64,000 nucleotides of DNA from an uncultured Patescibacteria group bacterium (GTDB lineage Bacteria > Patescibacteriota > Microgenomatia > UBA1400 > PJMF01). Each line of letters opens with the position of its first letter. Position 1 is the stretch's first letter. A program made the translations under genes and the position numbers. Where the stretch lies: positions 150,098-214,097 of the forward strand of contig CAJQIG010000001.1 in the NCBI GenBank assembly GCA_905478415.1, read 5' to 3'. The notes under the pieces were generated by a model. It made no database searches. It worked only from the letters and a program-made list of their open reading frames with translations, and was not told the DNA's origin. This document shows, piece after piece, positions 234 through 61,847 of the stretch.

Positions 234-416
234 TTTAATTCCTCCATAAGGTCTTAAAAGACGCCACTACCTATCGAGTAGTAGTGCAACATCTTCTAAT
301 TTCCTCATGGAAGAAAAACACGTTAAAGATCAGTGGTAACTCCACAGTTTTGAAACAAAACAGGGAATAACCACAAAAGATATTATATCCTATAATAGAA
401 ATTCAGTCAAGAAAAG

Positions 417-1352
417 TTAGCTTTGTTTTTTGTACCACTCCACGGTCTTCTTCAAGCCTTTCGGAAAGGTGACCTCAGAAACGAAGCCAAAGCCCTCTTC
501 TGCTCGGCTAGTATCAATTTTTCGTCGAGGTTGTCCGTCTGGTTTAGAGGTATCAAAAACAATTTTGCCTGTGTAACCAACAACATCACCAATGGTGTGA
601 GCGAGTTCTGCAATGCTGATTTCGAAGTTTGAGCCTAGGTTTACTGGTTCTGGACTGTTGTAGTTTTTAGTTGCCAGCACGATAGCGCGTGCTGCATCTT
701 CGACAAATAAAAATTCGCGCGTAGGAGCGCCTGTACCCCACACTGTTACTTCTGGAGCGTTATTCTCTTGTGCTTCCACAAACTTACGAATCAAAGCCGG
801 AATTACGTGTGAAGAAGCCGGATCAAAGTTATCGTCAGGGCCATAGAGGTTAGTTGGCAGTAAATAAATGGCTGGAAAGTCGTACTGATCTTGATACGCC
901 TGAGATTGCACCAAAAGCATTTTTTTGGCTAATCCATAGGGAGCATTGGTTTCTTCTGGGTAGCCATTCCACAAATCTTCTTCCTTAAAAGGAACAGGAG
1001 TGTACTTTGGATAGGCGCAAATAGTACCTATGCCCACAAACTTTTTAACTCCTGCCTTATATGCTTGATGGAGTACATGCGTACCCATAAGTAAATTATC
1101 GTAAAAAAGCTCAGCTGGATGTTCTTGATTGTAGCCGATACCACCGACATTGGCTGCCAAGTGGATAACTATATCTGAGCCCTTGACTACTTTGGCGGCA
1201 GCTGAGGGCTTGCGAAGGTCAAATTCCTTACTTCGAGGCACCAAAATGCTAGCAGGTTTTTCCTTTTTGAGTTCTTCGACGAGGTGGGAGCCGAGGAAGC
1301 CAGCGCCACCGGTGACTACTATTTTTTTGTTTTTGAGGGAGAGTGCTTTCAT
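417..1352 (-). CDS. fcl: GDP-L-fucose synthase (GDP-4-keto-6-deoxy-D-mannose 3,5-epimerase/4-reductase)
   Basis: ORF track 417..1448. Start moved to the ATG giving MKALSLKNKKIVVTGGAGFLGS (Rossmann GxxGxxG). Motifs PTNLYGPDDNF, SHVIPALIRKF and KPDGQPRRKIDTS are collinear with Fcl-type extended SDRs. Confidence 0.8.
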   Translation of the reverse strand: MKALSLKNKKIVVTGGAGFLGSHLVEELKKEKPASILVPRSKEFDLRKPSAAAKVVKGSDIVIHLAANVGGIGYNQEHPAELFYDNLLMGTHVLHQAYKAGVKKFVGIGTICAYPKYTPVPFKEEDLWNGYPEETNAPYGLAKKMLLVQSQAYQDQYDFPAIYLLPTNLYGPDDNFDPASSHVIPALIRKFVEAQENNAPEVTVWGTGAPTREFLFVEDAARAIVLATKNYNSPEPVNLGSNFEISIAELAHTIGDVVGYTGKIVFDTSKPDGQPRRKIDTSRAEEGFGFVSEVTFPKGLKKTVEWYKKQS

Positions 1353-1636
1353 GAGTTGGTTTTCTAATGGCTTGCTTTTGGTTATGGCTAGTATAGCAGG
1401 AGATTTGGGATTGTAAAAAACAAAGAGAAGGTTAAAAAAATATCCCATAGTATTGATTTTAAAATGTATCTCTGGTATAATTACTCGATTACAAACTTTT
1501 GAAAATCAAAAAAAGTTTCGTGATCTATTCTTTAACAGTTTACCTATTTATAAACAGTAAATTCTCTTTCATAGAATGGTGTCTTATATTCAACATTGGG
1601 TTGAATATTTAACCACCATTCTTGGAGGATTATTTC

Positions 1637-3088
1637 ATGAAGAATGCACCATTATTTGTAGGGTTAGGACTGATAGTGTTGATCCTGGGGTGGATCTTTG
1701 CCCCTTCGGCCATTGTCCATTTCATCCTTTTTGATATATTGTGGCTCGGCTTGCCTTACCTTTTGCCAGTCTTGGTTGTAATATTGCTAGTTTTACTAGC
1801 AGGCATGAAGAGTGAGGGTTTAATCATAGCCGTCTTCGTTGCTGGAGTGATTGGACTTATTTGCTGGTGGATTTATTTGCCGGCTTTAAGTCAATATGAA
1901 TTGGTTAATTCAATCAAACCAGTTCCCATCGAAGATATCCCAGCAAGTTCGAATGTCAGATTTATGCCAATGCCAGTTGCTCAACAGTTGGCATCCAGTA
2001 AATACCAGGACCCTCGTCATCATATTGGTGATATGGATCCTATCGAACTTGAAAGCGGAGACATTGGCTGGGTTGGAAGTCGTATACCAACGGGAATAGT
2101 TAACTACTACTCGGGTAATGCCCAAGGTACGATAACTGTTGATCCTTTTGGTCGTGTGACTACCCAAGATCAAGTCTTTGCTTGCGGTGAAGGAATGGCT
2201 ATTACTGATAATATCCGATGGAAATTGTGGCGTGAACATTATGGCGCCGTCCTGGATGAATATTACTATATTACAATTGACGATGAAATTGTTTTGATGG
2301 CTCCTTATATCACTTGGCATCTTGAAGGGATTGTCTTTGTGCCCCAGTGGGGTGGCGTATTTGTTGTTGACGGCGATTGTCACATTGAAGATTTATCTCC
2401 TCGTGAGGCTTTGGCCGATAGCCGCCTGATTGGGCATCGAATTGTTCCGGAAAGTTATGCTAAACGTGTTGCAGATGCATGGCAATACCGCAATGGTATT
2501 GCGAATGCTTGGTTTTACCATGTTGATCAGACTGAAGTACCAACGATTGATGGTGAGGATAACCAAATGCCGTACCTGATTCCAACGGAATTGGGTGAGC
2601 AATGGTTTATCGCCATGGAACCGTATGGGCCTGCATTTAGCATCTTTAAAATGATGTTTGTTGATGCTCATGACGGAACAATCCGCTTGTACGAATATTC
2701 TGAAGATGCGGCGATCATTTCACCTAATAAGGCGCTTGGTTTTATCCAGGCAGCCAATCCCACATACAACTGGGATAAAATTCGCGTAATTGAACCGCGG
2801 CCGCTGATTGTTGATAACGTTCTCTATTGGATGATGAGCCAAACAAGCTCTGACTTTAGTGGTGTAGAACGAACAATTCTTGTTCGATCGTCCGATGAGA
2901 AAGTTTTAGTGGTTGAATCTTATGAAGAGCTAGTGGTATTTCTTAGTGGCAACACAGCAACCGCTAGTCAGCTAGATGAAGAATCAACTGCTGTTAACAG
3001 TGAGGTTCCCAGTGACCTTACAACTTTGACTACGCAAGAGCTCTATGATTTGATCATGGACGTTGCTCGTGAGTTGGAAAGTCGTTAA
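1637..3088 (+). CDS. hypothetical protein: N-terminal 3-TM anchor plus ~380 aa extracytoplasmic domain
   Basis: ORF track 1622..3088. Position 1622 is TTG. The ATG at 1637 is preceded by GGAGG (1624-1628) at 8 nt spacing. Hydrophobic N-terminus (LFVGLGLIVLILGWIF..., LPVLVVILLVLLAG..., IAVFVAGVIGLICWWIY). Remainder is hydrophilic with no recognisable motif. GC noticeably higher than the window average. Confidence 0.6.
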   Translation: MKNAPLFVGLGLIVLILGWIFAPSAIVHFILFDILWLGLPYLLPVLVVILLVLLAGMKSEGLIIAVFVAGVIGLICWWIYLPALSQYELVNSIKPVPIEDIPASSNVRFMPMPVAQQLASSKYQDPRHHIGDMDPIELESGDIGWVGSRIPTGIVNYYSGNAQGTITVDPFGRVTTQDQVFACGEGMAITDNIRWKLWREHYGAVLDEYYYITIDDEIVLMAPYITWHLEGIVFVPQWGGVFVVDGDCHIEDLSPREALADSRLIGHRIVPESYAKRVADAWQYRNGIANAWFYHVDQTEVPTIDGEDNQMPYLIPTELGEQWFIAMEPYGPAFSIFKMMFVDAHDGTIRLYEYSEDAAIISPNKALGFIQAANPTYNWDKIRVIEPRPLIVDNVLYWMMSQTSSDFSGVERTILVRSSDEKVLVVESYEELVVFLSGNTATASQLDEESTAVNSEVPSDLTTLTTQELYDLIMDVARELESR

Positions 3089-3114
3089 TTTTTTGTAAAT
3101 AGGTACTATTGTAA

Positions 3115-3149
3115 GAGGCTCCTTCATTTCGAAGGGGCCTCATTTTTTT
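3115..3149 (+). terminator. Rho-independent terminator after 1637..3088, also abutting the convergent GT2 stop
   Basis: GAGGCTCCTTC-ATTTC-GAAGGGGCCTC gives an 11-bp stem (one G.U) and 5-nt loop, followed by ATTTTTTT. Confidence 0.65.
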
Positions 3150-3924
3150 ACTTCATCACCCGATACGCCCACACAATCAAGGTAGCATGTATCTTATGCA
3201 CAAACCGAATAAAGGGAGATTTCACGTATTTCAGAACCAGTTCATGCTCTTCGGCAAACTGCTTTTCATAGAGGGCTCCCCCTTTAGACTGGCCATGAAT
3301 TCTAAAGAGTGAAAAATGTGAATCAGTTACATGCAATGGAAATTGCTCCATAGCTCGCATCCAGTAGTCAAAGTCCATACAGAAGTGGAGGTCTTCGTTA
3401 AACATACCGACTTTATTTAGCAGCTCACGACGCCAAAAGGTACTGGGTTGGATAATATAGTTGGCAATAGAAAGTCTGGTGCGGGTAGGATCTTTGCGAA
3501 GCCATTTTTTATACTCGGCTACAAAACTTTGAATTTTGTTGCCTTTTTCATCAATAATAAAGTAGTCACCGGTTAGCCACATAGCATCGGAGTGATTGCT
3601 GAAGTACTCTGCCACGGTGTTAAGTGTATTGGGAAGAAAAACATCGTCACTATTAATAAAACAAAGGATGTCGCCAGTGGCTTTTTTAAGACCTTGGTTA
3701 ATTGCATCGGTTTGGCCTTTATCTTTCTTTGAGACCCAAGTAAATTGTGTACCGTACGATTTGAGAATCTTGACGGTATCATCGGTCGATCCCCCATCCA
3801 TGACGATATACTCAAGGTTTGGGTAGTTTTGATTGAGCACACTCTCAATTGTTTCTGTAATGAAGTGACCTTGGTTATAGCTGGGGGTGATAACGGTTAT
3901 TTTAGGAAGTTGCTTTTGTTTCAT
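3148..3924 (-). CDS. glycosyltransferase family 2 (GT-A fold)
   Basis: N-terminus KITVITPSYNQGHFITETIESVLNQNYPNLEYIVMDGGSTDDT plus the DxD-region INSDDVF are the classic GT2 signature. Confidence 0.8.
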   Translation of the reverse strand: MKQKQLPKITVITPSYNQGHFITETIESVLNQNYPNLEYIVMDGGSTDDTVKILKSYGTQFTWVSKKDKGQTDAINQGLKKATGDILCFINSDDVFLPNTLNTVAEYFSNHSDAMWLTGDYFIIDEKGNKIQSFVAEYKKWLRKDPTRTRLSIANYIIQPSTFWRRELLNKVGMFNEDLHFCMDFDYWMRAMEQFPLHVTDSHFSLFRIHGQSKGGALYEKQFAEEHELVLKYVKSPFIRFVHKIHATLIVWAYRVMK

Positions 3925-3949
3925 AGCCTTATTTTACCGTATAAACACA

Positions 3950-3980
3950 AAAAAAACGGCACCTAAAAAATAGATGCCGT
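3950..3980 (-). terminator. putative intrinsic terminator downstream of lipoprotein gene (minus strand)
   Basis: ACGGCA ... TGCCGT 6-bp stem with a large loop. On the minus strand it is followed by a T8 run (complement of aaaaaaaa 3948-3955). The large loop lowers confidence. Confidence 0.35.
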
Positions 3981-4001
3981 ATATAAAAACAATTAATACA
4001 A

Positions 4002-5006
4002 TTAACTACCGGTGAGTCCATGGACAACATGCCAGATTAACTCAAACATATCTGACTTCTTGTTGAGGACCATGTCTGCACCATTCTCTTCAAAGAGCTC
4101 ACGCACAGTCGATTCTTCATCTGACCATAACCGAGTGATTCGGTCAAGATTTTCTGATGTGTAGGCAAAAATCAACAATGGTGGTGGTAGTAAGGCTGCA
4201 ATTTCAGCCACGCAGGTGTGGCCAGGAGCTTGTCCCTCACTATGTTGGTCAACAACATACACATGGGCCAATTTAACAATCCCTGCACGCCAAGCGGCAC
4301 AGCTGGGATAGGCACCAACGGTGATAATACCTTGTTGAGCCAAGTTAGCTACAATGAGTGATGCCCACATGGCGTTATCTTCAATAACAACCGCAAGCGA
4401 ACCCGTTGGGGCCTGAATATCAATATCACCCGCCTCAACGGTAGGTGCCATTGCTACAATACCAACTTGGTCTTCAACCATTCCAGCTGGCAAGATTAGG
4501 TCAGTTCCATACCCTGCTTCCCATTCTTGGAAGCCATCAAAGGTGGTACCAGACCAGACAGCCTGATTTTGGAGACTGACTGCGGCTTGGCCACTAAAAA
4601 TTGCAACGATGCTTCCTTTGAGCATCATAACCAAAAATTCATCCCCTGGAATGGGATCGGCTACTGTTATTGCAAACAGTGGAACAAGAATATAGTTCTC
4701 GTTACCATTGAGCGATGCAGTAAATGCATCTCGATTTGTCCAACGGTACAGTGGGTCAACTACATCCCAATCAGATCCAGAGCATGATTCCCAGACACCA
4801 GAAACAACGCGAAGACTGCCTGGAGGGCAATATCCGGTATTAATGGCTTCATCTTGGGTGGTTGCTCCCCAGAAAACTGGGCTTTCGGCTGTATCTTCAA
4901 TTTTTGCAGGAGTGGAACTTTGGACAGCTGTACCAGGTGTTCCACATGCGGTTAGGGCGAATACTATGGCCATTACTATAATCAGAGTTTTTTGTGCTTT
5001 GCTCAT
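4002..5006 (-). CDS. hypothetical lipoprotein
   Basis: ORF track 4002..5018. The second ATG gives MSKAQKTLIIVMAIVFALTACGT, a lipoprotein signal peptide with lipobox L-T-A-C. The mature part has no recognisable motif. GC-rich relative to the window. Confidence 0.6.
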   Translation of the reverse strand: MSKAQKTLIIVMAIVFALTACGTPGTAVQSSTPAKIEDTAESPVFWGATTQDEAINTGYCPPGSLRVVSGVWESCSGSDWDVVDPLYRWTNRDAFTASLNGNENYILVPLFAITVADPIPGDEFLVMMLKGSIVAIFSGQAAVSLQNQAVWSGTTFDGFQEWEAGYGTDLILPAGMVEDQVGIVAMAPTVEAGDIDIQAPTGSLAVVIEDNAMWASLIVANLAQQGIITVGAYPSCAAWRAGIVKLAHVYVVDQHSEGQAPGHTCVAEIAALLPPPLLIFAYTSENLDRITRLWSDEESTVRELFEENGADMVLNKKSDMFELIWHVVHGLTGS

Positions 5007-5130
5007 TTTTGCCTCCACGAGCTAGATAGAAAATAAAAATTGTTTGTTAAAAAACGATAGTTACTTCTCAAAGAGAAATAACTATATCCTATATTATATC
5101 ATAAGAGGAGTTTAATAGTGTGTAAACGTA

Positions 5131-5159
5131 AAAATGGCAGCCTCTTGGACTGCCATTTT
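5131..5159 (-). terminator. intrinsic terminator hairpin downstream of 5177..5860 (minus strand)
   Basis: AAAATGGCAG-CCTCTTGGA-CTGCCATTTT is a perfect 10-bp stem with a U-rich 3' arm on the minus strand. Confidence 0.5.
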
Positions 5160-5176
5160 CTTTCTACATTCTTTAC

Positions 5177-5860
5177 TTACTTGCGCAGAAATCCATACCC
5201 CGTATCATCGTTTCCTGGGAATGGGTTGGGATCGTTGCTTTGGGCTCGGATAATGCCTTCCTGTTTTAGCCACCACAAGGGGCGATACTGGATTTGAGTA
5301 ACTTGTGTGGGATGGTAGGTAGCCCGTGTAAAAGGCACCTCTACCACATGGGAGACTTTGGTGCCGTCCCCTGTCATACCGACTGGAGATTTACGCAGTG
5401 TATCACCACCGCCCAAAGAAAACACCTCTTTGGTGAATGCTTCGTTCATGGGCATAACTACTTCTTTTTCTCGGAAGAAAGCTAAGCCAATGACGCCAGC
5501 ATTATCTGTGTTGCCTGAAGTCCAGGCCGCAACAGAGTTGGAAGGATAGGTAACCTTAAATGGAGAAATGGTCCCATTATCAAGGCGATATCCTTCAATA
5601 ATTAGCTGACCATCTAAGATATAACCACGGTCATTAAGAAAATCTGCAGGGCGATTGCGGTGAACAGAACGGCCGTCTACAGACATGTAGACTTCCATTC
5701 TATCAAATGGTCCAGCAGTCGAAACACGAACCTTGATATGATCATTAACCTCTGCTTGAACAAACGGCATGTTATCGCCTTGGCGATAGAAAATTTCTGT
5801 TGGCCGATCATTACGGAGGATAATAATGTTTGCCAAACTTCCAGGAATCATGTTGTTCAT
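5177..5860 (-). CDS. hypothetical soluble protein, unknown function
   Basis: 227-aa ORF with no TM segments or recognisable motifs. GC-rich (~48-50%) compared with neighbours. Followed by a hairpin terminator. Confidence 0.55.
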   Translation of the reverse strand: MNNMIPGSLANIIILRNDRPTEIFYRQGDNMPFVQAEVNDHIKVRVSTAGPFDRMEVYMSVDGRSVHRNRPADFLNDRGYILDGQLIIEGYRLDNGTISPFKVTYPSNSVAAWTSGNTDNAGVIGLAFFREKEVVMPMNEAFTKEVFSLGGGDTLRKSPVGMTGDGTKVSHVVEVPFTRATYHPTQVTQIQYRPLWWLKQEGIIRAQSNDPNPFPGNDDTGYGFLRK

Positions 5861-6060
5861 AACCTAAAATCTCCTTTAAAAAAGAAATATCCAGCCAACC
5901 GGATGTTAACTGGTGAACCAAAATGACAAAATAAGCTTGATACACCAGTTAACGTGTAAAGAATGTTAAAGATCAGAAGTATTTTACCCCATCTACATCT
6001 TCTAGTCAAATGTTATAAGTCTGTTATGTTACTATATCCCTTCAAAACTATCAAAAGAGG

Positions 6061-6801
6061 TTGTATACTCAAGTAAGTATAGAAACGAGGTATATGTCAG
6101 ATCAAACTTTAAAAACACCAGAAGAGCTTAAAGCTGCTGCCGAGTTTCAATTAAAAGCCAACCTTTCTCAAATGTCTCTGGGAGAGATTCGCATGAAACT
6201 TATCCTTGAAGGAGATACATTGCTTGAGGGTACGGGGCTCAATGCTAACGATCTGATTGTGGCGTGTAATGATTTAATAGATGCTATAGCAACTAATACG
6301 ACAGGTTCAAATGATGTTCCCGCGTACATTTTAAATAAAACTGCTCGAGCACAGGTGGTTCCTAGTTTTTTGCGTGCTACCTTTAAAGATGCCATTGCGA
6401 CTGAGATTACAACTCAACATGAAGAAGAAACTAAAAGAAAACTTGCTGAAGTAACAGCTAAAATTGGTACAGTGAAACCAACAGCAGAGAACTTATCAAG
6501 GTTTCGACGGCTTATTACTGAAGGTGTTGCATTAGGAATTATTGATCAAGATACTGCACTAGCTAAAATAAATAAAGCTATTGAAGCTACACTAGCAGTA
6601 ATAGATGTAACAATTAAAGAGATGACTACCATAAACATGCATAAAGACAAGCAACGTTTCTCTCCAGATATTTTGCAACACTATATGTCTAAAAAGTTAG
6701 AGCAACAAGATGATCTACCACCACTCGATTTTTTCGGCGAAGCTCTCTCAGACTATGCTGAAAAGAGTTTGCATGTAAAAAGAAAGAAGCAAGGAAATTA
6801 G
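6061..6801 (+). CDS. hypothetical acidic alpha-helical protein
   Basis: ORF track. Alternative start at MSDQTLK (6094). No motifs recognised. The stop overlaps the convergent GT2 stop at 6798-6801. Confidence 0.5.
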   Translation: MYTQVSIETRYMSDQTLKTPEELKAAAEFQLKANLSQMSLGEIRMKLILEGDTLLEGTGLNANDLIVACNDLIDAIATNTTGSNDVPAYILNKTARAQVVPSFLRATFKDAIATEITTQHEEETKRKLAEVTAKIGTVKPTAENLSRFRRLITEGVALGIIDQDTALAKINKAIEATLAVIDVTIKEMTTINMHKDKQRFSPDILQHYMSKKLEQQDDLPPLDFFGEALSDYAEKSLHVKRKKQGN

Positions 6802-10691: not shown

Positions 10692-11739
10692 TTTTAAGAA
10701 TACTTTTATACACTGCTACCGTTTCATTGGCCACTTTTTCCCAGCTAAATGTTTGTGACCATTTATATGCTTCTCGGAGCCAAGTGATCCGCTTTGTTTT
10801 TGACCATGATAGTACTTGGTTTACAGCTTGAGCCATTTTTTCTGCTTGTGGCTCTGTAAAGATGACCTGCTCACCTCCGACTTCAATCAGAGAGGAGTTA
10901 TGACTACACACAACTGGAGTTCTACACTGCATAGCTTCTAACACAGGTAATCCAAAACCTTCATAGAGGGAAGGTTGTACATATGCTTGGGCACCACTAT
11001 AGATAGCAGCGAGTTCATCGATTGATTCAGTCAAGATTGATGGCAAAAATATAACCCGATCTTCGACATTGCTGAGTGCTAACTGTGTCTCAATCCATTG
11101 CCATTCCGGTATATCCTGAGGAGTAAAGTTCCGACCTAAGCAAACAAGTTTAACTTCAGGGTCCTCAATAAACTTCATCATTTTTATGAGTTGAGGAATA
11201 TTTTTATTATAGTTAATATCTCCGACGTAGAGCAGATATTTAGCTGGTAGTGCATTTTTCTTAGCTACTGTGGTAATCATTTCATCATTTTGAGCTTGCA
11301 GGTTTGGATTAGCAGCCAAGTACACAACATGAACCTTTTCTGTATGCACACCTAAATGTTTTACTATGTCTGCTTTTGAAGCCTGTGAATCCGTAATAAT
11401 GGCTGCTACATTTTTGAGAGCCATTTTTTGTTTGTGAAATCTGAGTTTTCCTTTTATACCTGGTTTGTATTGCTTCGGAAAAACAAGGGGAATCACATCA
11501 TGAATGGCAACGACTTTATTTTTTGATCCAGTCAAAGGTAAGGTGTTAAAAAAGAGGTCAAAAAATGGGTAGTGCACAACATCAGCTTTAATTTTTTCAT
11601 TTTTACCTAAAGTGCTTGTTTTATACACCTCAACATCATCTCTTTTTTCTAGTTCAGAGAGTAACATTCGAGCATAGGTACCAATACCTCTGGCCGAGTG
11701 ACCACCACTTAAAACGCTGGTTTCAAAGAGTAATTTCAT
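10675..11739 (-). CDS. glycosyltransferase family 4 (GT-B fold)
   Basis: C-terminal EGFGLPVLEAMQCRTPVVCS is the canonical GT4 E-x7-E nucleotide-sugar-binding motif. Confidence 0.85.
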   Translation of the reverse strand: MKLLFETSVLSGGHSARGIGTYARMLLSELEKRDDVEVYKTSTLGKNEKIKADVVHYPFFDLFFNTLPLTGSKNKVVAIHDVIPLVFPKQYKPGIKGKLRFHKQKMALKNVAAIITDSQASKADIVKHLGVHTEKVHVVYLAANPNLQAQNDEMITTVAKKNALPAKYLLYVGDINYNKNIPQLIKMMKFIEDPEVKLVCLGRNFTPQDIPEWQWIETQLALSNVEDRVIFLPSILTESIDELAAIYSGAQAYVQPSLYEGFGLPVLEAMQCRTPVVCSHNSSLIEVGGEQVIFTEPQAEKMAQAVNQVLSWSKTKRITWLREAYKWSQTFSWEKVANETVAVYKSILKNGSST

Positions 11740-12548
11740 GAACTGTCTCTTTTCTTATGTTCTCTCAACTCCCAGAGGAGTAGGTATGCTACCTGATGGT
11801 GCAATCCACTCATAAGCGCAAAAACAAATCCTGGAATTCCATCAACATACCCTCTGTGTCTGATAAATAATTGTACAAAAGTGTAGATGGGTTTATAGAT
11901 GACGTAGTTGAGTGTGTTTAAAATAGAAATTTGCAGGTTATCTTTTTCGAGCTGTTGCGCTTTAAAGTTTGTATAGGTGCTGAATTTTCGTAAATAATCT
12001 GAGAAAGTTGGATTTGCATAGTGTATCAAGTGCCCTTTGGCCCAACCAATCTCTCCTTTCACTTCCATTTGTTCATGGACATCTTTTTGTGGAAGTTTTG
12101 CATAACCATGTATGTACAGTCTAATAACTGGATCTGGATATTGACCTCCCTTTTTAAAGTAGTGACCTAAAAAGAAATTCTTTCGTTTTAGCCACCAAGC
12201 TACTGGAGAACCAGAATAAGTACTGCCAACTGTGAACCCAGACCGGACTACTTCTGTATGTAGTGATGTAATCCATTTCTTTTGTTCTTTGTCTGGCCAC
12301 TCGTCAGCATCTAATTGGAGTACCAGTTCTCCTTTGGCAGCATCCATAGCCATCTGTTTATTTATATGGAAATTTGCTTTATTAGTAGTGGAAATAATTT
12401 TGGCGCCATTTTTTTTCGCAATTTCAACTGTTTTATCTGTCGATGAACCATCTACAACAACAATTTCGTCAGCAATATCTGCAATAGATTGCAGACACTT
12501 TGCAATATTCTTTTCTTCGTTATAGGTAGCCAAGACGACTGATAACAT
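11736..12548 (-). CDS. glycosyltransferase family 2
   Basis: MLSVVLATYNEEKNIAKCLQSI...IVVVDGSSTDKT...LQLDADE is the GT2 signature. Confidence 0.8.
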   Translation of the reverse strand: MLSVVLATYNEEKNIAKCLQSIADIADEIVVVDGSSTDKTVEIAKKNGAKIISTTNKANFHINKQMAMDAAKGELVLQLDADEWPDKEQKKWITSLHTEVVRSGFTVGSTYSGSPVAWWLKRKNFFLGHYFKKGGQYPDPVIRLYIHGYAKLPQKDVHEQMEVKGEIGWAKGHLIHYANPTFSDYLRKFSTYTNFKAQQLEKDNLQISILNTLNYVIYKPIYTFVQLFIRHRGYVDGIPGFVFALMSGLHHQVAYLLLWELREHKKRDSS

Positions 12549-12611
12549 AGGGACATTGTATCAAAAGAAGTAGATTTGTTTTTTAGCACTTTTTAGGATA
12601 GATTGAACCAT

Positions 12612-14495
12612 ATGAAGAAATTACTCATTTTCGCTACTTTTGTTTATTTTCTACTCGCACCGATTACCTACCATCCCGACAATAAACTAGTGCTGAACTG
12701 GGCAAGTATCAACAACGGTACTAACTGGAATATCTGGAATGCAACCGCCGATGAACTCAAAGACGTAGGGCAATTCAACTATCCTCCAGTGCATTTTTAT
12801 TTAGACAAACTGCAGTACTTTATTACGAAACCTATTGGTGGCTCTGGATTTTACGAGTGGCTTTCGACCCCTAACTCTACCGACCAAAATCAGGACAGCC
12901 TTCCTCGATTTACTTTTGCGATCAAGTTCCCTCTCATGCTTTTTTCACTTTTAGCAGGGTACCTTTTATACTTACTTGCTAAGCAATCGAAAGCTACTGA
13001 GAAGCAAGCAATTTTTGTAAGTGCCTTATGGCTTCTCAACCCGATCACTTTGTATAGTATCCCTGTCATGGGACAAAATGACGTTATGGCTATCGTCTTC
13101 TTTTTGGCTGCTTGGCTCTTTTTAAATAAGAAAAAATTATTTTACTCAGCGCTCTTATTTGGTTTGGGAGCATCAATCAAAATGTTTCCATTGCTGTGGC
13201 TCCCCTTTTTACTTCTTGTCGAGAAACGTCTTTCCTTAAAAGAAAAACTAGTAACTTTTGGAAGTAGTGTGCTGGTCTACATCGCGACATTGCTCCCATT
13301 TATTTCTAACCCTGCATTTAGAGCTGCTGTGTTTGAACGAGGCATAGATCGACTTTTTATTGCTAGAATTGACTTGGGTTTCGAAGATAAAATTTTGATT
13401 GTACCAATCCTACTCATGCTTTTAGTTGCGGGAGCAGTTCATAAATATAAAACTATAGAGACAAAAAAAGTAATGATTCATCAAGCCAGTATTTTACTGC
13501 TGTTGAACATGATCTTTCTTTTCTTCAATCACTTTCATCCTCAATGGTTTACTTGGCTACTTCCTTTCTGGGCACTTTGGTTTCTTAACCAGAAAAAAGA
13601 AAATCTTGTTTGGGTCCTCCTTACAAACGGGATTGTTTTAGGAGCATGGGCACTTATCATTTTGCTCTTTAATGACACTGCACTTACGGCGGGACTCTTG
13701 ACTCCGTTAAATGCATTCTTAATGACGCTTCCTTCAATGAGAGAACTACTACTGAGTCAGGGTGTTGATGTTAAAACGTTCAATAATTATGGGCATACTT
13801 TGTTAGCGGGTATGGGAATACTTTACTTTTCATATTGGTTCAAGAGTCAAGAGGTTTCCCTCCGTCATTCTATAGGTGAGTTTAGGTACTTTTGGAAAAA
13901 AATACCCAAGTTAGTTCTCTATATATCAATTTTAGCAATTTCTTTTACTAGCATTCTTATGTTGACGTTTATTGCCAATGCAATTCCTACGCCTATTGCC
14001 AGTAACAATCCAGTAGTCGTTGATTATGAGCCTTTTGTTTCCACCATAGAACAAACATTTATTGGACAAACCAACGGTTTATACCGAATTGATTTATATT
14101 TGTCAGACATTGACCTACAAAATACAGACACATATAGAGTACAAATGATGTCGGAGGATGGAACGCTGGTTCTAGACCAAGTCTTTTCTGGTATCAATAT
14201 TGGATATAAATCTGAAATCCGTTTTGATCTAAGATCTCAAGGAAATTCAATGAACCAACCCTACACCATTAAGCTGATTCCCCTTGAAATAACAGAAGAA
14301 GACCCATTGGAGATAGCATTAACAGAATCTGACAGACTTGAATCATTTGCCTTTCGAAGTTTCTATAAAAAGCCCCGTGGGAACAAGTATCTGGGGTATG
14401 TGCTGACAGAAACACTCCAACAGGATTTCAACATACTCAAGCAGGTTCCCATTGTCATTATCGCTCTTCCTATTTTACTCTGGTTGGCACTCTAA
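12612..14495 (+). CDS. large polytopic membrane protein (~13 TM), putative GT-C-like glycosyltransferase
   Basis: ORF track 12603 (TTG)..14495. ATG at 12612 (MKKLLIF). Multiple TM helices and a C-terminal ~170 aa hydrophilic domain. No definitive catalytic motif identified. Confidence 0.5.
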   Translation: MKKLLIFATFVYFLLAPITYHPDNKLVLNWASINNGTNWNIWNATADELKDVGQFNYPPVHFYLDKLQYFITKPIGGSGFYEWLSTPNSTDQNQDSLPRFTFAIKFPLMLFSLLAGYLLYLLAKQSKATEKQAIFVSALWLLNPITLYSIPVMGQNDVMAIVFFLAAWLFLNKKKLFYSALLFGLGASIKMFPLLWLPFLLLVEKRLSLKEKLVTFGSSVLVYIATLLPFISNPAFRAAVFERGIDRLFIARIDLGFEDKILIVPILLMLLVAGAVHKYKTIETKKVMIHQASILLLLNMIFLFFNHFHPQWFTWLLPFWALWFLNQKKENLVWVLLTNGIVLGAWALIILLFNDTALTAGLLTPLNAFLMTLPSMRELLLSQGVDVKTFNNYGHTLLAGMGILYFSYWFKSQEVSLRHSIGEFRYFWKKIPKLVLYISILAISFTSILMLTFIANAIPTPIASNNPVVVDYEPFVSTIEQTFIGQTNGLYRIDLYLSDIDLQNTDTYRVQMMSEDGTLVLDQVFSGINIGYKSEIRFDLRSQGNSMNQPYTIKLIPLEITEEDPLEIALTESDRLESFAFRSFYKKPRGNKYLGYVLTETLQQDFNILKQVPIVIIALPILLWLAL

Positions 14496-23728: not shown

Positions 23729-24295
23729 TCATAGTGTCAATTGGGTGACGTTATACCACTGTTGATTTTTAATAAGTTCTCTCTCTTTAGACGTATAGTC
23801 AAACATGCCGTTCACTCGTTGCATTTCTTCTGTAGAAGTGATGAACACGAACAAGTACTGCGATTGGTTTATTTTAGTTAGAATAAAAGAGTCACTTTCT
23901 AAAAGAATTTCACCTGTACTAGCAGCTTTAAATTCATTCAATCTTACCCTTGTATCACCTAGTAAAAGGCCATCCATGCTTGTTAAGTATTCCGATGTAT
24001 AGAAAAGAAGTGGCGTGCTCTCTTCTTCTAAAGAAGTAATTCTAAAAGTGGTGAAAAAATCAGTATTTTTTTCTTCACGAGTAAAAGCACCTGGGCTAAA
24101 ACGTTCACGAAATTGCCAATACACTTCTGGATCTAAACCGTTTGTCTTTAGTTGGGTTTGAAACTCAGTAAAGAGCTTTGTTCTATACCAAGTTGAATAT
24201 TGAGCCTTTACATCTGGGTGCCTCAAAAAAGCAATCGTGAGAATTAAGAACGTAAGTACTATCAAAAAAAGTGTATTTGAAGACTTTTTATTCAT
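23729..24295 (-). CDS. hypothetical membrane-anchored (signal-anchor) protein
   Basis: MNKKSSNTLFLIVLTFLILTIAFL is an N-terminal TM helix. The rest is hydrophilic with no motif. Confidence 0.5.
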   Translation of the reverse strand: MNKKSSNTLFLIVLTFLILTIAFLRHPDVKAQYSTWYRTKLFTEFQTQLKTNGLDPEVYWQFRERFSPGAFTREEKNTDFFTTFRITSLEEESTPLLFYTSEYLTSMDGLLLGDTRVRLNEFKAASTGEILLESDSFILTKINQSQYLFVFITSTEEMQRVNGMFDYTSKERELIKNQQWYNVTQLTL

Positions 24296-29558: not shown

Positions 29559-31103
29559 TTATAAAGTTCTTGCCTTGTAGACAACTATTTTATCTCCAAA
29601 TGATTTCTCTGAAAGTATTTCACTATATCGTTGTCTACCCCACCAATTAGTAAGTACATCTGACTCTCTTGTATCAGTGATAACGTAATAAATATTTTTG
29701 GGTGTACCTTGTAAGCGAGGGCCATATTTGGCGTCAATTACTCCTAAAATATCTTCTTTTTCCCTAATATAGGAAACCACACCTGGCTCGTAAGCAAATT
29801 CTACAGGAAGTTCTTCACCCTCCAACCCCTGTTTTAAAAATAAATACTGGTACGGAAAATCATAGACATCAGGCATGTAGGTGTACACTGAAAAACGGGT
29901 GTCACCGGTGTCTTCTCTAATATAGTCGACTACTTTTTCTTTGACTGGGTAGTGAACTGTATCAAATTCAAATATAGGTTTTTCTACTTGTAGATAGTAA
30001 TTCAAACGCACTAAACCAGATACAATGAAAATTGACATACAAAGAACTGAAAATGCTTTAGGGGTTTTACTGAATACGGTACCCAAAAGAATAGTAACGA
30101 TTGGAATCATAGGCAAGACATACCAAAGGTTAAAGTGTAAGAAAAAGAATCCAATGATAGGAAAAATAGTAAATAGGCCTCCGATAATGAGTAGCTGTTG
30201 TAGTTCATTGTCAAAACTTTTTTTCTTCCAAATAAAATATCCAGCTAGTATCACTAACATTAGCAAGAGAGCCAGTGAATATTCTCTTAAAACACCAGGA
30301 AGTTCAAACAGTGTTCCACGAAACTCACCAAATGTAATCTGTAAGACAGAAAGAATTTTCTCCACACCAAAAGTATGACTTTCTCCTTCAGAGAAGTATG
30401 CAATGATCGCTCTTGCTTCAACAAAATTATTTTTAATTTCGAACAGCAACTGAGGAATAAAGGGGAGAAAGAAACCAAGCATGCTAGCAAATAATGCTCT
30501 AACATTTGGTCTGAATTTATACAACAATAAGGTGGCTACAATTATGAATGGATAGAAAATGGCAAATGCTGATGAAAAATGAAATCCAAAGGCAGCAGTA
30601 AAAAATAAGCCAAATACAATTTTTTCATTGAGTTTTTTTTGCGCAATCTGCTTTTTAAGTAATATGAGAATAACAATTGAAAGTAAGGTCATTGGGAATG
30701 GATTCCAAGCACTTCTGGATATTGTTAACCAAAAATTTGTGAACCCCATTATGACAGCAGATTCAATGTTGAAGTATCTATACACAAGATACATCTGCAG
30801 TAAAACTAACAAGGTCATCCCAACGGCAAAGAACGAAGGATCAAAGCCGCCAAGTAAAGCAAAAGGAGCCAAGAAATAATACCAAGCGGGACCAAAAAAG
30901 AGTCCTGGGATACTTGTCCAAGGACCAATGAACTTGATTTTTGGAACTACCAACATGTGGAGGACTGCTATGGCATCTTTACCATGATCAAATAGAAAGG
31001 GAACCACTCCACCTTGAATGTACAAAAAACGCACGATTCCAGCCGTTACTAAAAGTAAGATAAACCATAAGTGTTTTGATACTAAACTCTTAATTTTGAA
31101 CAT
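29559..31103 (-). CDS. GT-C-like polytopic membrane protein, G-D-x-G-[RK]-D family (tandem paralog A)
   Basis: TM1 followed by VVPFLFDHGKDAIAVLHMLV...IGPWTSIPGLFFGPAWYY, then SRSAWNPFPM. Collinear with 31152..32708 (FLGDQGRDALIVSRIF...IGPVTSVGNMYLGPLYYY...FSWNPNPAPF). Confidence 0.6.
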   Translation of the reverse strand: MFKIKSLVSKHLWFILLLVTAGIVRFLYIQGGVVPFLFDHGKDAIAVLHMLVVPKIKFIGPWTSIPGLFFGPAWYYFLAPFALLGGFDPSFFAVGMTLLVLLQMYLVYRYFNIESAVIMGFTNFWLTISRSAWNPFPMTLLSIVILILLKKQIAQKKLNEKIVFGLFFTAAFGFHFSSAFAIFYPFIIVATLLLYKFRPNVRALFASMLGFFLPFIPQLLFEIKNNFVEARAIIAYFSEGESHTFGVEKILSVLQITFGEFRGTLFELPGVLREYSLALLLMLVILAGYFIWKKKSFDNELQQLLIIGGLFTIFPIIGFFFLHFNLWYVLPMIPIVTILLGTVFSKTPKAFSVLCMSIFIVSGLVRLNYYLQVEKPIFEFDTVHYPVKEKVVDYIREDTGDTRFSVYTYMPDVYDFPYQYLFLKQGLEGEELPVEFAYEPGVVSYIREKEDILGVIDAKYGPRLQGTPKNIYYVITDTRESDVLTNWWGRQRYSEILSEKSFGDKIVVYKARTL

Positions 31104-31151: not shown

Positions 31152-32708
31152 TTAATTCTGCTCTTTTCGCAGCATGGTAATCTCTGGGCCGTCAGGAATA
31201 GTGTAGACCTCAACCGGTTTTTTATTTGGGAACACAACAATTTCGTAGACGGGAGAATCAACTTCTTTCTCTATCTTTCGTTCCTCATCAATAATAAAAA
31301 GTGTTTCAACTTGACCGAACTCTTCTTCTGAAACTATTTTTTTGTCATCAGATGTTGATAAAAAATACCGATAATTTTGACCATTGAGATCACCAGTGCC
31401 ATTCAATAATACAATATTGTATTTTTCTCCTGGTTTTACTCTATCTTCAATTGTTTGTGCAACACTCTGAATATTAGCAATTGTCCACCCCAATGACTCT
31501 AGCATTTCTCTTCCATAAATAAAGTTGAATTGTATAAAAAAGAAAGAAAAAATACCTACCAAAATTTTTCCAACCATACTTTTTTGATATAAGTAATCTA
31601 AAATAATTGCGAGTGAAAAAAAGGCAGCAGGAAATAGATATGCAATATAATGATGATAAATATTATGTCGATATAAAGCAGTGCCGATAATTCCAGTTAT
31701 TAAAAATGAGAAAACAATAAACTCTCCTGATGCTAATCGACCTTTCTTGAACTTTCTAATTACAATATAAAATAAAACTGCAATCAACGAGAAAGCTATA
31801 AAAGTATCAAAAGATGAGTCATGTTCTCCCACACTTAAATCGGTCAAAATAAGTTTTGCTCGACTTCTAATGTTAATCAGTGTACTTGCAAGAACAGTAG
31901 GCGCTTCATGTTCATTTTTTGCAAAGGTTTCTTCCTTCGTTAAAATATTTATAAAAGCCTTCTTATTTAAACCATCATGTTTGATATCAAATAACACTAG
32001 TGGGGTGAGTGAGAGAAGAAAAATAAGCACTCCTACTGTTGTAGCAGTAAACATTTTTTTCAAAGGCTTTTTTTCTTTTATTTTTGTAAAAAGTTGATAA
32101 AGCCAAACCAACCCAAAAGCTGCGCCCGCAAGCAGTGTCATGTAGTGAAGCTGAATCAAGACTGCAAAACAAACTACCACAGCAATCCAATACTTCACAT
32201 TTTGTAGTGCCTTAAAGGTAAAATACATCAGCAGTAATGAAACAAATGGCGCTGGATTTGGGTTCCAACTGAAGCGAGTGTTTTGAGCCACCACAGCAGA
32301 TAAACCAAAGAGTGTTGCTGCAATAAGAGCTACTCGTTCACTTAAAAATTTCTTTCCCAAATGATACATCAAGAACACCGTCACAACTCCTAACAGTGCA
32401 ATTGCATAAACAGGTCCCATTGGACTTGGATAGGTCAACCAGAGAAAAGGGACCATAAAGTAGTAGTACAACGGCCCTAGATACATATTCCCCACACTGG
32501 TGACGGGACCAATGAAAACAAAATCTAGTTCTCGAAAAATTCGTGACACAATTAATGCATCACGTCCTTGATCTCCCAAAAACTGAACCGTATTTGCAAC
32601 ATTATAAAATCTTAAAAAAGTAGCAATACCTAAAACTATCAAGATAAGTACATGCTTTCTCTCAAACTTTTTCGGTACTAAGGATCTGATGCGTGCTAGT
32701 ACTTTCAT
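31152..32708 (-). CDS. GT-C-like polytopic membrane protein, G-D-x-G-[RK]-D family (tandem paralog B)
   Basis: See paralog A. Shares the loop-1 acidic motif, the xGPxTSxxxxYxGPxYYY segment and the SWNP motif. Confidence 0.6.
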   Translation of the reverse strand: MKVLARIRSLVPKKFERKHVLILIVLGIATFLRFYNVANTVQFLGDQGRDALIVSRIFRELDFVFIGPVTSVGNMYLGPLYYYFMVPFLWLTYPSPMGPVYAIALLGVVTVFLMYHLGKKFLSERVALIAATLFGLSAVVAQNTRFSWNPNPAPFVSLLLMYFTFKALQNVKYWIAVVVCFAVLIQLHYMTLLAGAAFGLVWLYQLFTKIKEKKPLKKMFTATTVGVLIFLLSLTPLVLFDIKHDGLNKKAFINILTKEETFAKNEHEAPTVLASTLINIRSRAKLILTDLSVGEHDSSFDTFIAFSLIAVLFYIVIRKFKKGRLASGEFIVFSFLITGIIGTALYRHNIYHHYIAYLFPAAFFSLAIILDYLYQKSMVGKILVGIFSFFFIQFNFIYGREMLESLGWTIANIQSVAQTIEDRVKPGEKYNIVLLNGTGDLNGQNYRYFLSTSDDKKIVSEEEFGQVETLFIIDEERKIEKEVDSPVYEIVVFPNKKPVEVYTIPDGPEITMLRKEQN

Positions 32709-46464: not shown

Positions 46465-47895
46465 ATGACTACTACACACGTTCGTACCAGAATGGCCCCC
46501 AGCCCAACCGGTGATATGCATGTCGGTAGTATGGGCATTGTTCTAAAAAACTATGCGTATGCTAAAAAACATGGTGGATCATTTGTATTGCGTATTGAAG
46601 ATACTGATAAGGTTCGCGAAGTCGAAGGAGCCGTTGATAGAATTCAAGATATTATTACCGCCTATGGTCTTGATTGGGACGAAGGTCCAGGGAAAGGTGG
46701 AGATTTTGGCCCCTACATTCAGTCTCAAAGAATTGACCTTTACACTCAAATGGCCAGAGAACTTGTCGAAAATGATAAAGCCTACTACTGTACCTGCAGT
46801 AAAGAACGACTTGAAGAGGTCAGAGACTCAATGAGAGCTCAAAAGCTCCCACCTAAATATGATCAGCGCTGTCGAAATCAACAAGAGTTAGTTCTCGGAG
46901 AAATGGCAAATGGGGCACAAGCAGTTATTCGTCTTAAAACTCCTAAGGACCAAGATGTATCATTTACTGATTTAATTAGAGGGACTATTACCTTCAACTC
47001 AAATACTGTTGATGATCAAGTTCTTTTAAAGTCTGATGGCTATCCAACCTATCATCTTGCCGTCGTTGTAGATGACCATGGTATGGACATTACTCACATT
47101 ATGCGAGGTGAAGAATGGATAAGTTCAACACCAAAACATGTGTTACTCTACCAAGCTTTTGGCTGGGAGATGCCTGTTTTTGCTCATATACCTGTCTACC
47201 TAAATCCTGATGGTAAAGGCAAGATGAGTAAACGCAAAGGTACTGTTTCTGCTCAATCATTTCTTGATAGAGGCTATTTACCAGAGGCGCTTCTCAATTT
47301 TTTTATGATCTTAGGTTGGGCTCATCCAGATGAGAAAGAAATTCTGTCTCTCGAAGAGTATATTCAGTACTTTGATCCTAAAGATGTCAGTCCTAAATCA
47401 GTTGTATTCGATATGAAAAAGCTTGACTGGATGAATGGCATGTATATTCGTCAATTACCTCTTGAGGAACTTGAGTCTAAGTTACAACCATTTATCCCTG
47501 AAGAATTTCCAAAAGAAAAAGTTGCTTTAGTACTACCACTTATATTTGAGCGATTAGAAAAACTATCAGATTTTGCAGAACTTACCAGTTTTTTCCAAGG
47601 AGAAATAACTATTCCCACTGACCTCTTACTTAAAAAAAGCTCCGTTGATCAAGTAAATGAGCAGATCACTGCCTGTATTGAAGCACTCACAAACATTGAG
47701 TGGTCAATTGAAACTATAGAAACAGCAATTCGCAACCTACAAGAAAAGAACGACTGGAAAAAGAAACAATTTTTTATGATGGTCAGAGTAGCCGCAACTG
47801 GTAAAAAGGCTACCCCACCTTTATTTGAAACTATGCAGTTAATCGGAAAAGAGGCTATACTACAAAGACTCAACCAATCACTACAACAAGTATAA
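46465..47895 (+). CDS. gltX: glutamyl-tRNA synthetase
   Basis: VRTRMAPSPTGDMHVGS (HIGH-type motif), ...KMSKRKG (KMSKS), class I GluRS catalytic core. Confidence 0.9.
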   Translation: MTTTHVRTRMAPSPTGDMHVGSMGIVLKNYAYAKKHGGSFVLRIEDTDKVREVEGAVDRIQDIITAYGLDWDEGPGKGGDFGPYIQSQRIDLYTQMARELVENDKAYYCTCSKERLEEVRDSMRAQKLPPKYDQRCRNQQELVLGEMANGAQAVIRLKTPKDQDVSFTDLIRGTITFNSNTVDDQVLLKSDGYPTYHLAVVVDDHGMDITHIMRGEEWISSTPKHVLLYQAFGWEMPVFAHIPVYLNPDGKGKMSKRKGTVSAQSFLDRGYLPEALLNFFMILGWAHPDEKEILSLEEYIQYFDPKDVSPKSVVFDMKKLDWMNGMYIRQLPLEELESKLQPFIPEEFPKEKVALVLPLIFERLEKLSDFAELTSFFQGEITIPTDLLLKKSSVDQVNEQITACIEALTNIEWSIETIETAIRNLQEKNDWKKKQFFMMVRVAATGKKATPPLFETMQLIGKEAILQRLNQSLQQV

Positions 47896-60361: not shown

Positions 60362-60769
60362 ATGGTTTCACTCAATACTTTACAATCTGAACCCTATAAA
60401 GGGTATGTGAAAAAACTCTCTATTGAAGCAGGTTGGTCAGTAGAGGTCTATGATGTGCAAGCAGAACAGATTTGCTTGTTAGAAGAGTATGATGGAAAAT
60501 ACTTAGTCAGCGGAAGCAGTTTTCTAATTGCTCTCAACTATTACGGTTGTACACAATTAGAGTGGGAAGCAAAAAATGCACAGGGTGCTTCATGGTATGA
60601 TGCAAAGCCAATTTCTGGTACTGAATTAACAATCGGATTCTCAAAAATCTGGTTATTTTTTCAAGAGGACGAAGCAGAAGTAACCTTAAAAGTCCGGTTA
60701 CATGATGCAAGTAGCGAAGATAGTTTAGGAGAAGAACATGTTATTCACTTACAGCTAGTGAAAATATAA
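60362..60769 (+). CDS. hypothetical small protein
   Basis: 135-aa ORF with AAAGGAGG at 8 nt. No motifs. Confidence 0.55.
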   Translation: MVSLNTLQSEPYKGYVKKLSIEAGWSVEVYDVQAEQICLLEEYDGKYLVSGSSFLIALNYYGCTQLEWEAKNAQGASWYDAKPISGTELTIGFSKIWLFFQEDEAEVTLKVRLHDASSEDSLGEEHVIHLQLVKI

Positions 60770-61406: not shown

Positions 61407-61448
61407 GCCGAATCTTTAACATCAGTCACCTTTTCAATGGAGGAAACA

Positions 61449-61847
61449 ATGAGTAAGGTACGTTTGTCTTTAGGACCAAAACTTGAATATCCAAGTGTCC
61501 CAGCAGTTTTTATAGAACAAAAAGGAAAGCTTTGGCCACCCTTTTCATATAAGAAAGTTGAGCACGCTACAAAATGTAGTGCAAGTATGCAACCAGTTTT
61601 CCTAGTTGAATCAGATTTTGCTCGTCAGTTTGTTGGGTTTATGGAACCTCTTCAAAAACCCAGAAGTTTGTTACTACTCCCCTGTGATCCGAATGAGGAA
61701 ATAACGCTCAGTGGCCTACACAAAGGCCATATGATCTATGACGTGAAAATCAGGTTTGTCTCATTTTCTACAGTCAAATTAACGAGCTTTTTCCCGTTTC
61801 CAGATTCGGGAATTGCTACGTATTCTGTTGATTTTGAAGCACAGTAA
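61449..61847 (+). CDS. hypothetical small protein
   Basis: ORF track 61437..61847. The ATG at 61449 (MSKVRL) is preceded by GGAGG at ~6 nt. No motifs. Confidence 0.55.
   Translation: MSKVRLSLGPKLEYPSVPAVFIEQKGKLWPPFSYKKVEHATKCSASMQPVFLVESDFARQFVGFMEPLQKPRSLLLLPCDPNEEITLSGLHKGHMIYDVKIRFVSFSTVKLTSFFPFPDSGIATYSVDFEAQ

Follow-up and report, generated by a model that had tools for sequence, protein, structure and literature searches.

Three GC-richer genes in a glycan gene cluster of an uncultured Patescibacteria group bacterium: probably native, fast-evolving genes

Introduction

A stretch of 64,000 nucleotides (nt) from an uncultured Patescibacteria group bacterium (contig CAJQIG010000001.1, positions 150,098 to 214,097), here called the window, carries three genes near its start that are richer in guanine plus cytosine (GC) than most of their surroundings. 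They are labelled A, B and C and stand beside two genes of glycan type, fcl and a GT2 glycosyltransferase gene. The reading favoured here, with a probability of roughly 0.55, is that A, B and C are native, strongly expressed and fast-evolving genes of the lineage-conserved stretch fcl-A-GT2-(B)-C, and not an imported island. The GC excess of A and C is probably a trait of their gene families and tied to expression. The host genome would be small and AT-rich, and the locus native to its lineage. The genes concerned are the following.

417-1448, minus strand: fcl, a GDP-L-fucose synthase-like epimerase/reductase (NCBIfam GDPFucSynFcl, E 8.5e-90, below the curated cut-off; Pfam Epimerase)
1637-3088, plus strand: gene A, an open reading frame (ORF) of 483 amino acids (aa), read from the ATG after GGAGG
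3148-3924, minus strand: GT2 glycosyltransferase gene between A and B (Pfam Glycos_transf_2, E 2e-31)
4002-5006, minus strand: gene B, an ORF of 334 aa, predicted lipoprotein
5177-5860, minus strand: gene C, an ORF of 227 aa, a soluble protein

Base composition of the locus

All three ORFs of the original prediction, which had been made by eye from the letters of the sequence, were found where it had placed them. Their GC content is 0.435 (A), 0.469 (B) and 0.459 (C), while the 56 genes of the window average 0.391 with a standard deviation of 0.028. No other gene among them is as GC-rich as B and C, and A ranks fifth. The shift is genuine, but the range of about 46-50% first given for it is overstated, above all for A. 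The contrast that had been drawn with glycosyltransferase (GT) genes at about 35-40% GC stands only in part. GT2 has a GC content of 41.1% and the highest GC at third codon positions (GC3) of all 56 genes, 0.444 against a mean of 0.330 (standard deviation 0.037), and fcl reaches 44.0% GC.

For each gene, the GC expected from its amino acids, given the codon usage of the window, was separated from a synonymous residual. After this correction, the synonymous excess is largest in GT2 (z 4.2), followed by C (3.6) and fcl (3.1), with A (1.6) and B (1.5) behind at about the same level. Since the synonymous shift is strongest in GT2, C and fcl, the compositionally odd unit is the contiguous block 417-5860 rather than three lone genes. 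The excess of B is nearly all amino-acid composition (z 3.4 for the amino-acid part versus 1.5 for the synonymous part); its residues include 11.7% Ala, 8.1% Gly and 2.1% Lys. That of A is divided equally, with z 1.6 for each part.

The absolute shift is small, 4-8 points, and A deviates with z of about 1.6-2.1, so that chance fluctuation, or ORFs that are not genuine genes, has to be considered. This explanation is highly improbable. Each of the three ORFs has homologues in which length and motifs are conserved, their promoters, Shine-Dalgarno (SD) sites and terminators are conserved, and nonsynonymous divergence (dN) lies below the proportion of synonymous differences (pS). The top two ranks of B and C, and the same shift in every orthologue examined, likewise speak against it.

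Conservation of the locus in related genomes

Contigs from related genomes are labelled L005, L006, L020, L022 and so on, and L001 is the stretch that extends past the window start. Eighteen homologues of A were found (28-69% identity), none of them annotated, and six close homologues of C. Two homologues of B are full-length, P0019 and P0020 (40-41% identity), and L022 has a cut copy (64%).

The gene order around A and C recurs in these relatives. L006 has C (53% identity) - GT2 (84%) - an A-like gene (28%) - fcl (83%), L005 has A (67%) - GT2 (82%) - C (41%), and L020 has C - GT2 - fcl. GT2 is the most conserved gene of this module, being 82-84% identical in the three contigs. In L022, B (64%) adjoins C (59%). 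A comparison of the same site thus finds an A-family gene and C in L005 and L006 and C - GT2 - fcl in L020, with B missing in all three. A recent island is not borne out for A and C, whose homologues stand in identical context, in the order C-GT2-A-fcl, in L005, L006 and L020.

Synonymous divergence (dS) of the window from L005 and L006 is saturated, with values from 1.3 to infinity. The dN values are 0.10-0.12 for GT2, 0.29 for A and 0.39-0.56 for C. The rate of evolution in A and C is three to five times that of the GT genes beside them. The orthologues keep the compositional excess, and it is larger there than in the window: their GC is 0.51-0.53 for C and 0.47-0.49 for A, with flanks at 0.40-0.43. 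An imported signature would decay independently in each lineage, and the persistence of the excess at saturated dS therefore argues against import.

The locus had also been placed at the edge of the glycan cluster. This position is not upheld: past the window start, the source scaffold (584 kb, from a marine metagenome) goes on with methyltransferases, a GT4 and a Polysacc_synt flippase.

Gene flow at the locus

Under the alternative of horizontal acquisition, the three units form an imported island whose GC excess is the not yet ameliorated mark of a GC-richer donor. It is an unlikely explanation of the locus as a whole, and the signs of exchange lie in B and in one A allele. In L005, L006 and L020, the GT2 promoter and start codon lie within about 90 nt after the C terminator. 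In the window, a self-contained cassette of 1.17 kb (promoter, B, terminator) is inserted between the C terminator and the GT2 promoter. B occurs at a different locus in Pacebacteria contigs, in the order tig-272aa-B-351aa...MiaB, near the genes for trigger factor and MiaB. From the gene orders, B alone behaves as an inserted cassette, and import is plausible for B only.

The second sign of exchange is found in L006. Its gene at 11631-13235 (minus strand) has the same position as the window A, between GT2 (84%) and fcl (83%), and belongs to the A family, but is just 28% identical to A. It is the weakest match to the A-family profile and the most divergent member, despite coming from the closest relative genome. 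This points to replacement of the allele, or to very rapid divergence, at a locus for surface proteins. The window A shares 46% identity with proteins of WWE3 type, encoded by genes of 62% GC, and A, B and C bear SD sites in a genome mostly without them; both observations would suit a foreign source, as do the GC ranks of B and C.

Against such an island stand the shared context of A and C and the larger excess in relatives. The shift also reaches the conserved genes GT2 and fcl, and the excess of B is one of amino-acid composition. A scan of six ORFs within 417-6801 (those of fcl, A, GT2, B, C and a further gene, D) gave no mobility domain. No tRNA gene lies at the locus, the only one of the window being at 58475, and no flanking direct repeats were found there. 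An integrase, a transposase and a cluster-edge position are likewise lacking.

Origin of the GC excess

The excess also recurs in unrelated hosts. Among the ORFs of its locus, the A gene ranks first in GC3 in the WWE3-like contigs L011, L013 and L014 (0.82-0.84 versus 0.64) and in the Atribacterota locus L017 (0.50 versus 0.33). So does the C gene in L006 and in the Collierbacteria locus L023 (0.83 versus 0.55). These maxima in several genomes suggest that the A and C families are abundant proteins in candidate-phyla bacteria.

A preference for cytosine-ending codons on the sense strand is a typical outcome of translational selection, and a GC-rich donor is expected to raise guanine and cytosine together. 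At the fourfold degenerate sites of the window, cytosine reaches 0.28 in gene C versus 0.19 (p=0.01), 0.36 in GT2 (p=4e-5) and 0.32 versus 0.19 in fcl (p=6e-5), and guanine is unchanged. Fourfold-site cytosine is also raised in the C gene of L006 (0.35 versus 0.18), the C gene of L023 (0.60 versus 0.36) and the A gene of L013 (0.51 versus 0.37). Cytosine is up and guanine is not, and expression-linked codon choice is therefore favoured over import. The pattern of a foreign donor, with both bases shifted at synonymous sites, was found in none of C, GT2 and fcl; the synonymous z of A is 1.6.

Two causes would together produce the excess. The first is the amino-acid makeup of the proteins, with much Ala, Gly, Pro and Trp and little Lys; it covers B and about half of the excess of A. 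The second would be the preference for cytosine-ending codons that is common to C, GT2 and fcl and is probably maintained by selection for high expression. The variability of the locus, with a fast A and C and a B cassette that comes and goes, would fit variable functions at the cell surface or in the envelope. Of the two causes named in the original prediction, unusual expression constraints thus fit best, and horizontal acquisition is unsupported for A and C.

Several points weigh against reading A, B and C as native, strongly expressed genes. The window A has no enrichment of cytosine at fourfold sites (0.17 versus 0.19), and guanine is weakly up in it (p=0.03). A test on twofold pyrimidine-ending codons is not significant (0.359 versus 0.314, p=0.08). 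A-family genes in two Chloroflexota loci and in a Saccharibacteria locus are not GC3-rich. The background stretches of the relatives span just 8-20 kb, and the window has no ribosomal-protein genes by which preferred codons could be calibrated. High expression is itself read from codon pattern and signal strength. Finally, the presence and absence of B and the 28%-identical A allele of L006 mean that gene flow is active at the locus.

Transcription units

Each of A, B and C is monocistronic, with a promoter-like site of sigma-70 type, a long 5' leader, an SD site and a terminator of its own. The signals are listed below.

1453-1481, plus strand: promoter-like site of A, TTGATT-17-TATAAT with TG before the -10 box (consensus scan, 10/12 matches, extended -10)
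1624-1628, plus strand: GGAGG SD site of A, 8 nt before the ATG
3115-3141, plus strand: intrinsic terminator lying where A and GT2 converge (stem of 11 bp with 7 GC pairs, T run)
3956-3980, minus strand: intrinsic terminator of B (10-bp stem, T run)
5012-5016, minus strand: GGAGG SD site of B, 5 nt before the ATG at 5006
5057-5126, minus strand: promoter-like site of B (5126-5098), leader hairpin with T run (5085-5057), then TTTTTAACA (scan and sequence)
5131-5157, minus strand: terminator of C, AATGGCAG-N9-CTGCCATT with T run (found by eye in the sequence and in its alignment with L006 and L005)
5981-6009, minus strand: promoter-like site of C, TTGACT-17-TAAAAT (scan)

That every unit has its own terminator was confirmed, with one reassignment. 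The terminators of A and B are at 3115-3141 and 3980-3956. That of C is at about 5157-5131; it is kept in two relatives, L006 and L005, and its 9-nt loop caused it to be overlooked by the scan. The hairpin that the scan did report, at 5085-5057, belongs to the leader of B. The layout of this leader, with promoter, hairpin, T run and motif, is repeated in the B leaders of L022, L009 and L012. The C promoter is conserved in L005, L006, L020 and L022.

A canonical GGAGG ribosome-binding site had been noted for A as rare in this DNA. It was seen at 1624-1628, and the rarity extends to the SD sites of all three units. An SD match of five bases precedes 8 of the 56 window genes, and GGAGG precedes four, among them A and B; C has AAGGAG (5876-5871). 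The GTG at 5018 falls within the ribosome-binding site of B and is no start codon. Across the window, the genes that bear an SD site are chiefly hypothetical ones (A, B, C and the ORFs 60362-60769 and 61450-61847). Many other genes look leaderless, with a -10-like box at most about 10 nt from the start codon, including GT2 (start at 3924), 23729-24295 and 46465-47895.

Leaders and a shared motif

The leaders of A and C have a short motif in common, which also occurs before other genes.

1529-1537, plus strand: shared leader motif TCTTTAACA in the 5' leader of A
5861-5980, minus strand: structured 5' leader of C, conserved in four genomes
320-410, minus strand: promoter-like site (410-382, 11/12 matches) and motif ATCTTTAACGT (330-320), upstream of a gene for a transmembrane (TM)-anchored protein of 178 aa that starts at 230 and extends past the window edge

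The motif can be written (G)ATCTTTAAC(A/G). Its sites are 1529-1537 (plus), 5963-5973 (minus), 61412-61422 (plus), 320-330 (minus) and L001 16319-16326 (plus), the last about 460 nt past the window start. The core CTTTAAC[AG] occurs eight times in 68.8 kb, counting the window and 4.8 kb beyond its start. Five of the eight are intergenic, and intergenic DNA makes up about 7%. All five have the sense orientation and lie 29-104 nt before the start of a gene, namely A, C, the ORF 61450-61847 and the genes for two TM-anchored paralogues (178 and 204 aa). In orthologous leaders, the motif is kept for A in L005 and, as GATCTTTAACC, in L006, and for C in L005, L006, L020 and L022. The B leaders have a hairpin, a U run and TTTTTAACA or the variant GTTAACATTCT. 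From this distribution we infer that the GATCTTTAAC genes, comprising A, C and at least three others, are co-regulated.

The two paralogues (L001 15631-17032) end in DW(T/S)FWN, and each has a strong promoter, the motif and GGAGG. The gene for the 204-aa protein has 46.7% GC, so the set of GC-richer genes without assigned function continues past the window.

The C leader combines several elements. It contains ATCTTTAACAT (5973-5963) and a long hairpin with arms at 5953-5937 (GTTAACTGGTG) and 5921-5905 (CACCAGTTAAC). A terminator-like hairpin with a U run (5913-5891) overlaps the 3' arm of the long hairpin, and a stretch rich in U can base-pair with the SD site. Over four genomes, 115 nt of the leader show 79% column identity despite saturated dS, with fold z values of -4.8 to -5.7. 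The long hairpin has compensatory changes; four covarying pairs were counted in the leader, from just four sequences. In L005, the motif is kept and the hairpins are different. A covariance model of the leader (R1) retrieved orthologous leaders only, and a search of Rfam 15 with 5861-6010 gave no match at E<=10. For the A leader (1482-1636), Corona_pk3 scored 23.5 bits against a gathering threshold of 35.6 (E 0.23), which was read as chance. A metagenome scan with TCTTTAACATTCTYTA returned 120 loci, all attributed to chance, and A, B and C are encoded by none of them.

A wider proposal can be put forward tentatively. GATCTTTAAC, which usually follows a small hairpin, may mark a new regulon of strongly signalled, fast-evolving envelope and hypothetical genes in this lineage, with B possibly included through the TTTTTAACA variant. 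The C leader would then be a new RNA of attenuator or riboswitch type, in which an antiterminator hairpin and a terminator overlap and a further helix sequesters the SD site. A and C might be two arms of one surface programme, for example for the attachment of an episymbiont to its host, and A might found an as yet unmodelled family of ectodomain proteins with a membrane anchor in Patescibacteria, Chloroflexota and Atribacterota. The motif and the structured leader offer a possible first handle on gene regulation in these organisms.

Protein A

None of the proteins A, B and C has a match in Pfam, NCBIfam or PHROGs, in agreement with the earlier remark that they have no recognisable domain. The AlphaFold model of A is confident, with a predicted local distance difference score (pLDDT) of 84.8 and a predicted template modelling score (pTM) of 0.79. 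The N-terminal 91 residues are helical, and hydropathy places TM segments at 4-22, 37-55 and 61-79. Three such segments would put the remainder of the protein outside. This remainder is modelled as four modules, each a helix and a four-stranded sheet, at about 112-181, 193-253, 272-353 and 363-426. A disordered linker of Ser, Thr and acidic residues (440-457) and a conserved C-terminal helix (466-482) follow. The ectodomain has 60 Asp and Glu against 25 Lys and Arg. A is thus predicted to be an acidic extracytoplasmic protein that is held in the membrane by three TM helices.

No member of the A family matches any Pfam family, and PepSY (PF03413) was matched by 0 of 19 at E<=1. The family has no Pfam model, and a confident structure prediction now exists for it. 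The likeness of the four modules does not extend to the sequence, where hhalign gave an internal repeat a probability of at most 14%, and a duplication is unsupported. A Foldseek search of the model against the PDB returned propellers at a template modelling score of about 0.2 and no genuine global match.

Outside the lineage, a genome scan with a subset of 13 A sequences found homologues in WWE3, other Patescibacteria, Saccharibacteria, Nealsonbacteria, one metagenome-assembled genome (MAG) each of Anaerolineales and Atribacterota, and the cultured Thermosporothrix hazakensis. Among their neighbours are a pair of M16 peptidase genes, elongation factor P (EF-P), Nramp, Dtd, a carboxylesterase and a histidine kinase. 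In the WWE3-like contigs L011 (7306-9882), L013 (5184-7789) and L014 (5252-7828), the A homologue is transcribed away from the M16 peptidase pair, in divergent orientation; these peptidases are Pfam-confirmed in L011 and L013 and judged by ORFs of equal sizes in L014.

Protein B

B begins with the signal MSKAQKTLIIVMAIVFALTAC, which has a hydrophobic segment at 7-25 and the lipobox LTAC with Cys21. The cysteine and the position of the lipobox are conserved in P0019 and P0020, as for a bacterial lipoprotein. The protein is acidic, rich in Ala and Gly and poor in Lys, and has a low-complexity tether, four further invariant cysteines and a C-terminal half that looks alpha/beta. It is predicted to be a lineage-restricted, acidic surface lipoprotein.

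No convincing match to B was found in Pfam or the PDB. A receiver-like fold had been considered by eye for the C-terminal half; residues 199-334 have no Pfam match at E<=10 and no match to a PDB receiver. Residues about 55-85, with the pattern NTGYCPPG...W..CS..GT, align weakly (E 0.06) to Bacillus subtilis YoeB/IseA (PDB 8wt4), an autolysin inhibitor. This match and those to nanobodies (E 0.02-2) were rejected as too weak, signal peptide and YxC patterns lying behind the scores; YoeB/IseA is at most a lead.

Protein C

The statement that all three products are exported or associated with the envelope holds as a prediction for A and B. C has no export signal: it lacks a signal peptide, a TM segment and any hydrophobic segment, its highest Kyte-Doolittle mean over 19 residues being 0.66. 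Its structure model is poor (pLDDT 56), and the confident part is an N-terminal Ig-like beta-sandwich. C is a soluble protein with a beta-sandwich and probably cytoplasmic.

The family is large. An exhaustive profile search collected 2712 cluster representatives at E<=1e-3; with the limit at E<=1e-10, 870 were left. The family has the conserved motifs SVDGR, GVIGxA..E, F.R and, towards the C-terminus, Y..WL..GI and PxPFPG..TGY. For all its 2700 and more cluster representatives, its sole link is to a domain of unknown function (DUF), DUF7918. The window C itself has no Pfam match to it at E<=1. P0082 scores 29.5 bits against the DUF7918 cut-off of 27, but in another part of the protein, and a literature search found no paper mentioning DUF7918. 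A similarity to alkaline phosphatase (E 0.01 with a profile of six sequences) was gone with a profile of 57 sequences. A search of plasmids with C gave no match. The hypothetical protein of Rhizobium phage RHph_I1_18 at MN988519.1 50292-50984 is a remote homologue of C, with 25% identity over 92% of C (E 2e-7).

Relation to the glycan genes

A, B and C may also be dedicated partners of the glycan machinery, either acceptor glycoproteins or accessory or chaperone subunits of GT2 or GT-C enzymes, and be kept beside GT2 and fcl for this reason. Four related genomes keep the order C-GT2-A-fcl, with more glycan genes on both sides. A and B are predicted to be extracytoplasmic and have Ser/Thr-rich linkers (B 22-45, A 437-460), and linkers of this kind carry O-linked glycans in other monoderms. 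In their PepSY-like build, the modules of A are similar to YpeB, which partners a cell-wall enzyme at the membrane.

The wider families do not show this association, and each gene in the window is a separate transcription unit outside any GT operon. Outside the lineage, no GT, C-family or B-family gene was found within 8 kb of the A homologues, and no glycan gene nearby. The B homologues lie near trigger factor and MiaB, and the Collierbacteria C homologue (L023) lies near YkuD, VanW and an NTP-transferase. Across the family range, a GT gene is absent from L011 and L013-L018 (A), L009 and L012 (B) and L023 (C). The lack of an export signal in C further counts against a role as acceptor. A putative glycosylation link is confined to the lineage of the window and unsupported for the families as a whole, and a dedicated partnership is rather unlikely.

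Neighbouring genes

Gene D (6061-6801, plus strand; 246 aa), which has no domain, adjoins the GC3-rich gene C and has the lowest GC3 of the window (0.255). In the same place, L006 has a gene for 247 aa with barely any similarity to it. A long series of ORFs of 500-645 aa extends over 12603-40620. Four of them were scanned, and only 12603-14495 has a Pfam match, to GT87 at 32.2 bits (cut-off 25); its score for ALG3, 22.6 bits, is under the cut-off. The ORFs 29559-31103 and 31152-32708 match a protein of 518 aa in L006.

Comparison with known systems

With genomic islands, the locus shares raised local GC, the presence or absence of B and the divergent A allele of L006. It differs from them in having no mobility genes, tRNA anchor or flanking repeats, in a context conserved at saturated dS, and in an excess that is specific to cytosine and shared with neighbours of housekeeping type. 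The case cautions against calling islands from GC judged by eye, the modest rise proving here a probable family trait. The locus can be described as a variable surface-gene site (B cassette, A allele replacement) inside a glycan cluster.

The C leader is like attenuating leaders and the expression platforms of riboswitches in its overlapping hairpins and its SD-sequestering helix, but differs from those platforms in its lack of an Rfam match. For the C protein family, the nearest described relative is DUF7918 (PF25534), which is matched at E<=1 by 9 of 57 aligned members of about 230 aa (best E 7.6e-7); the family motifs Y..WL..GI, PxPFPG and TGY lie outside the matched region. The closest known system for A is that of the PepSY-type anchored proteins, such as Bacillus YpeB and YpmB (PDB 5boi, 2gu3). 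A differs from these in its three TM segments instead of one, its four modules, its acidic linker and its conserved C-terminal helix.

The codon bias of highly expressed genes is a further likeness, with the window A, which has no cytosine enrichment, as the departure from it. Shared with such genes are the rise of cytosine but not of guanine at fourfold sites, its reproducibility in orthologues and remote homologues from genomes that differ in base composition, strong promoters and SD sites.

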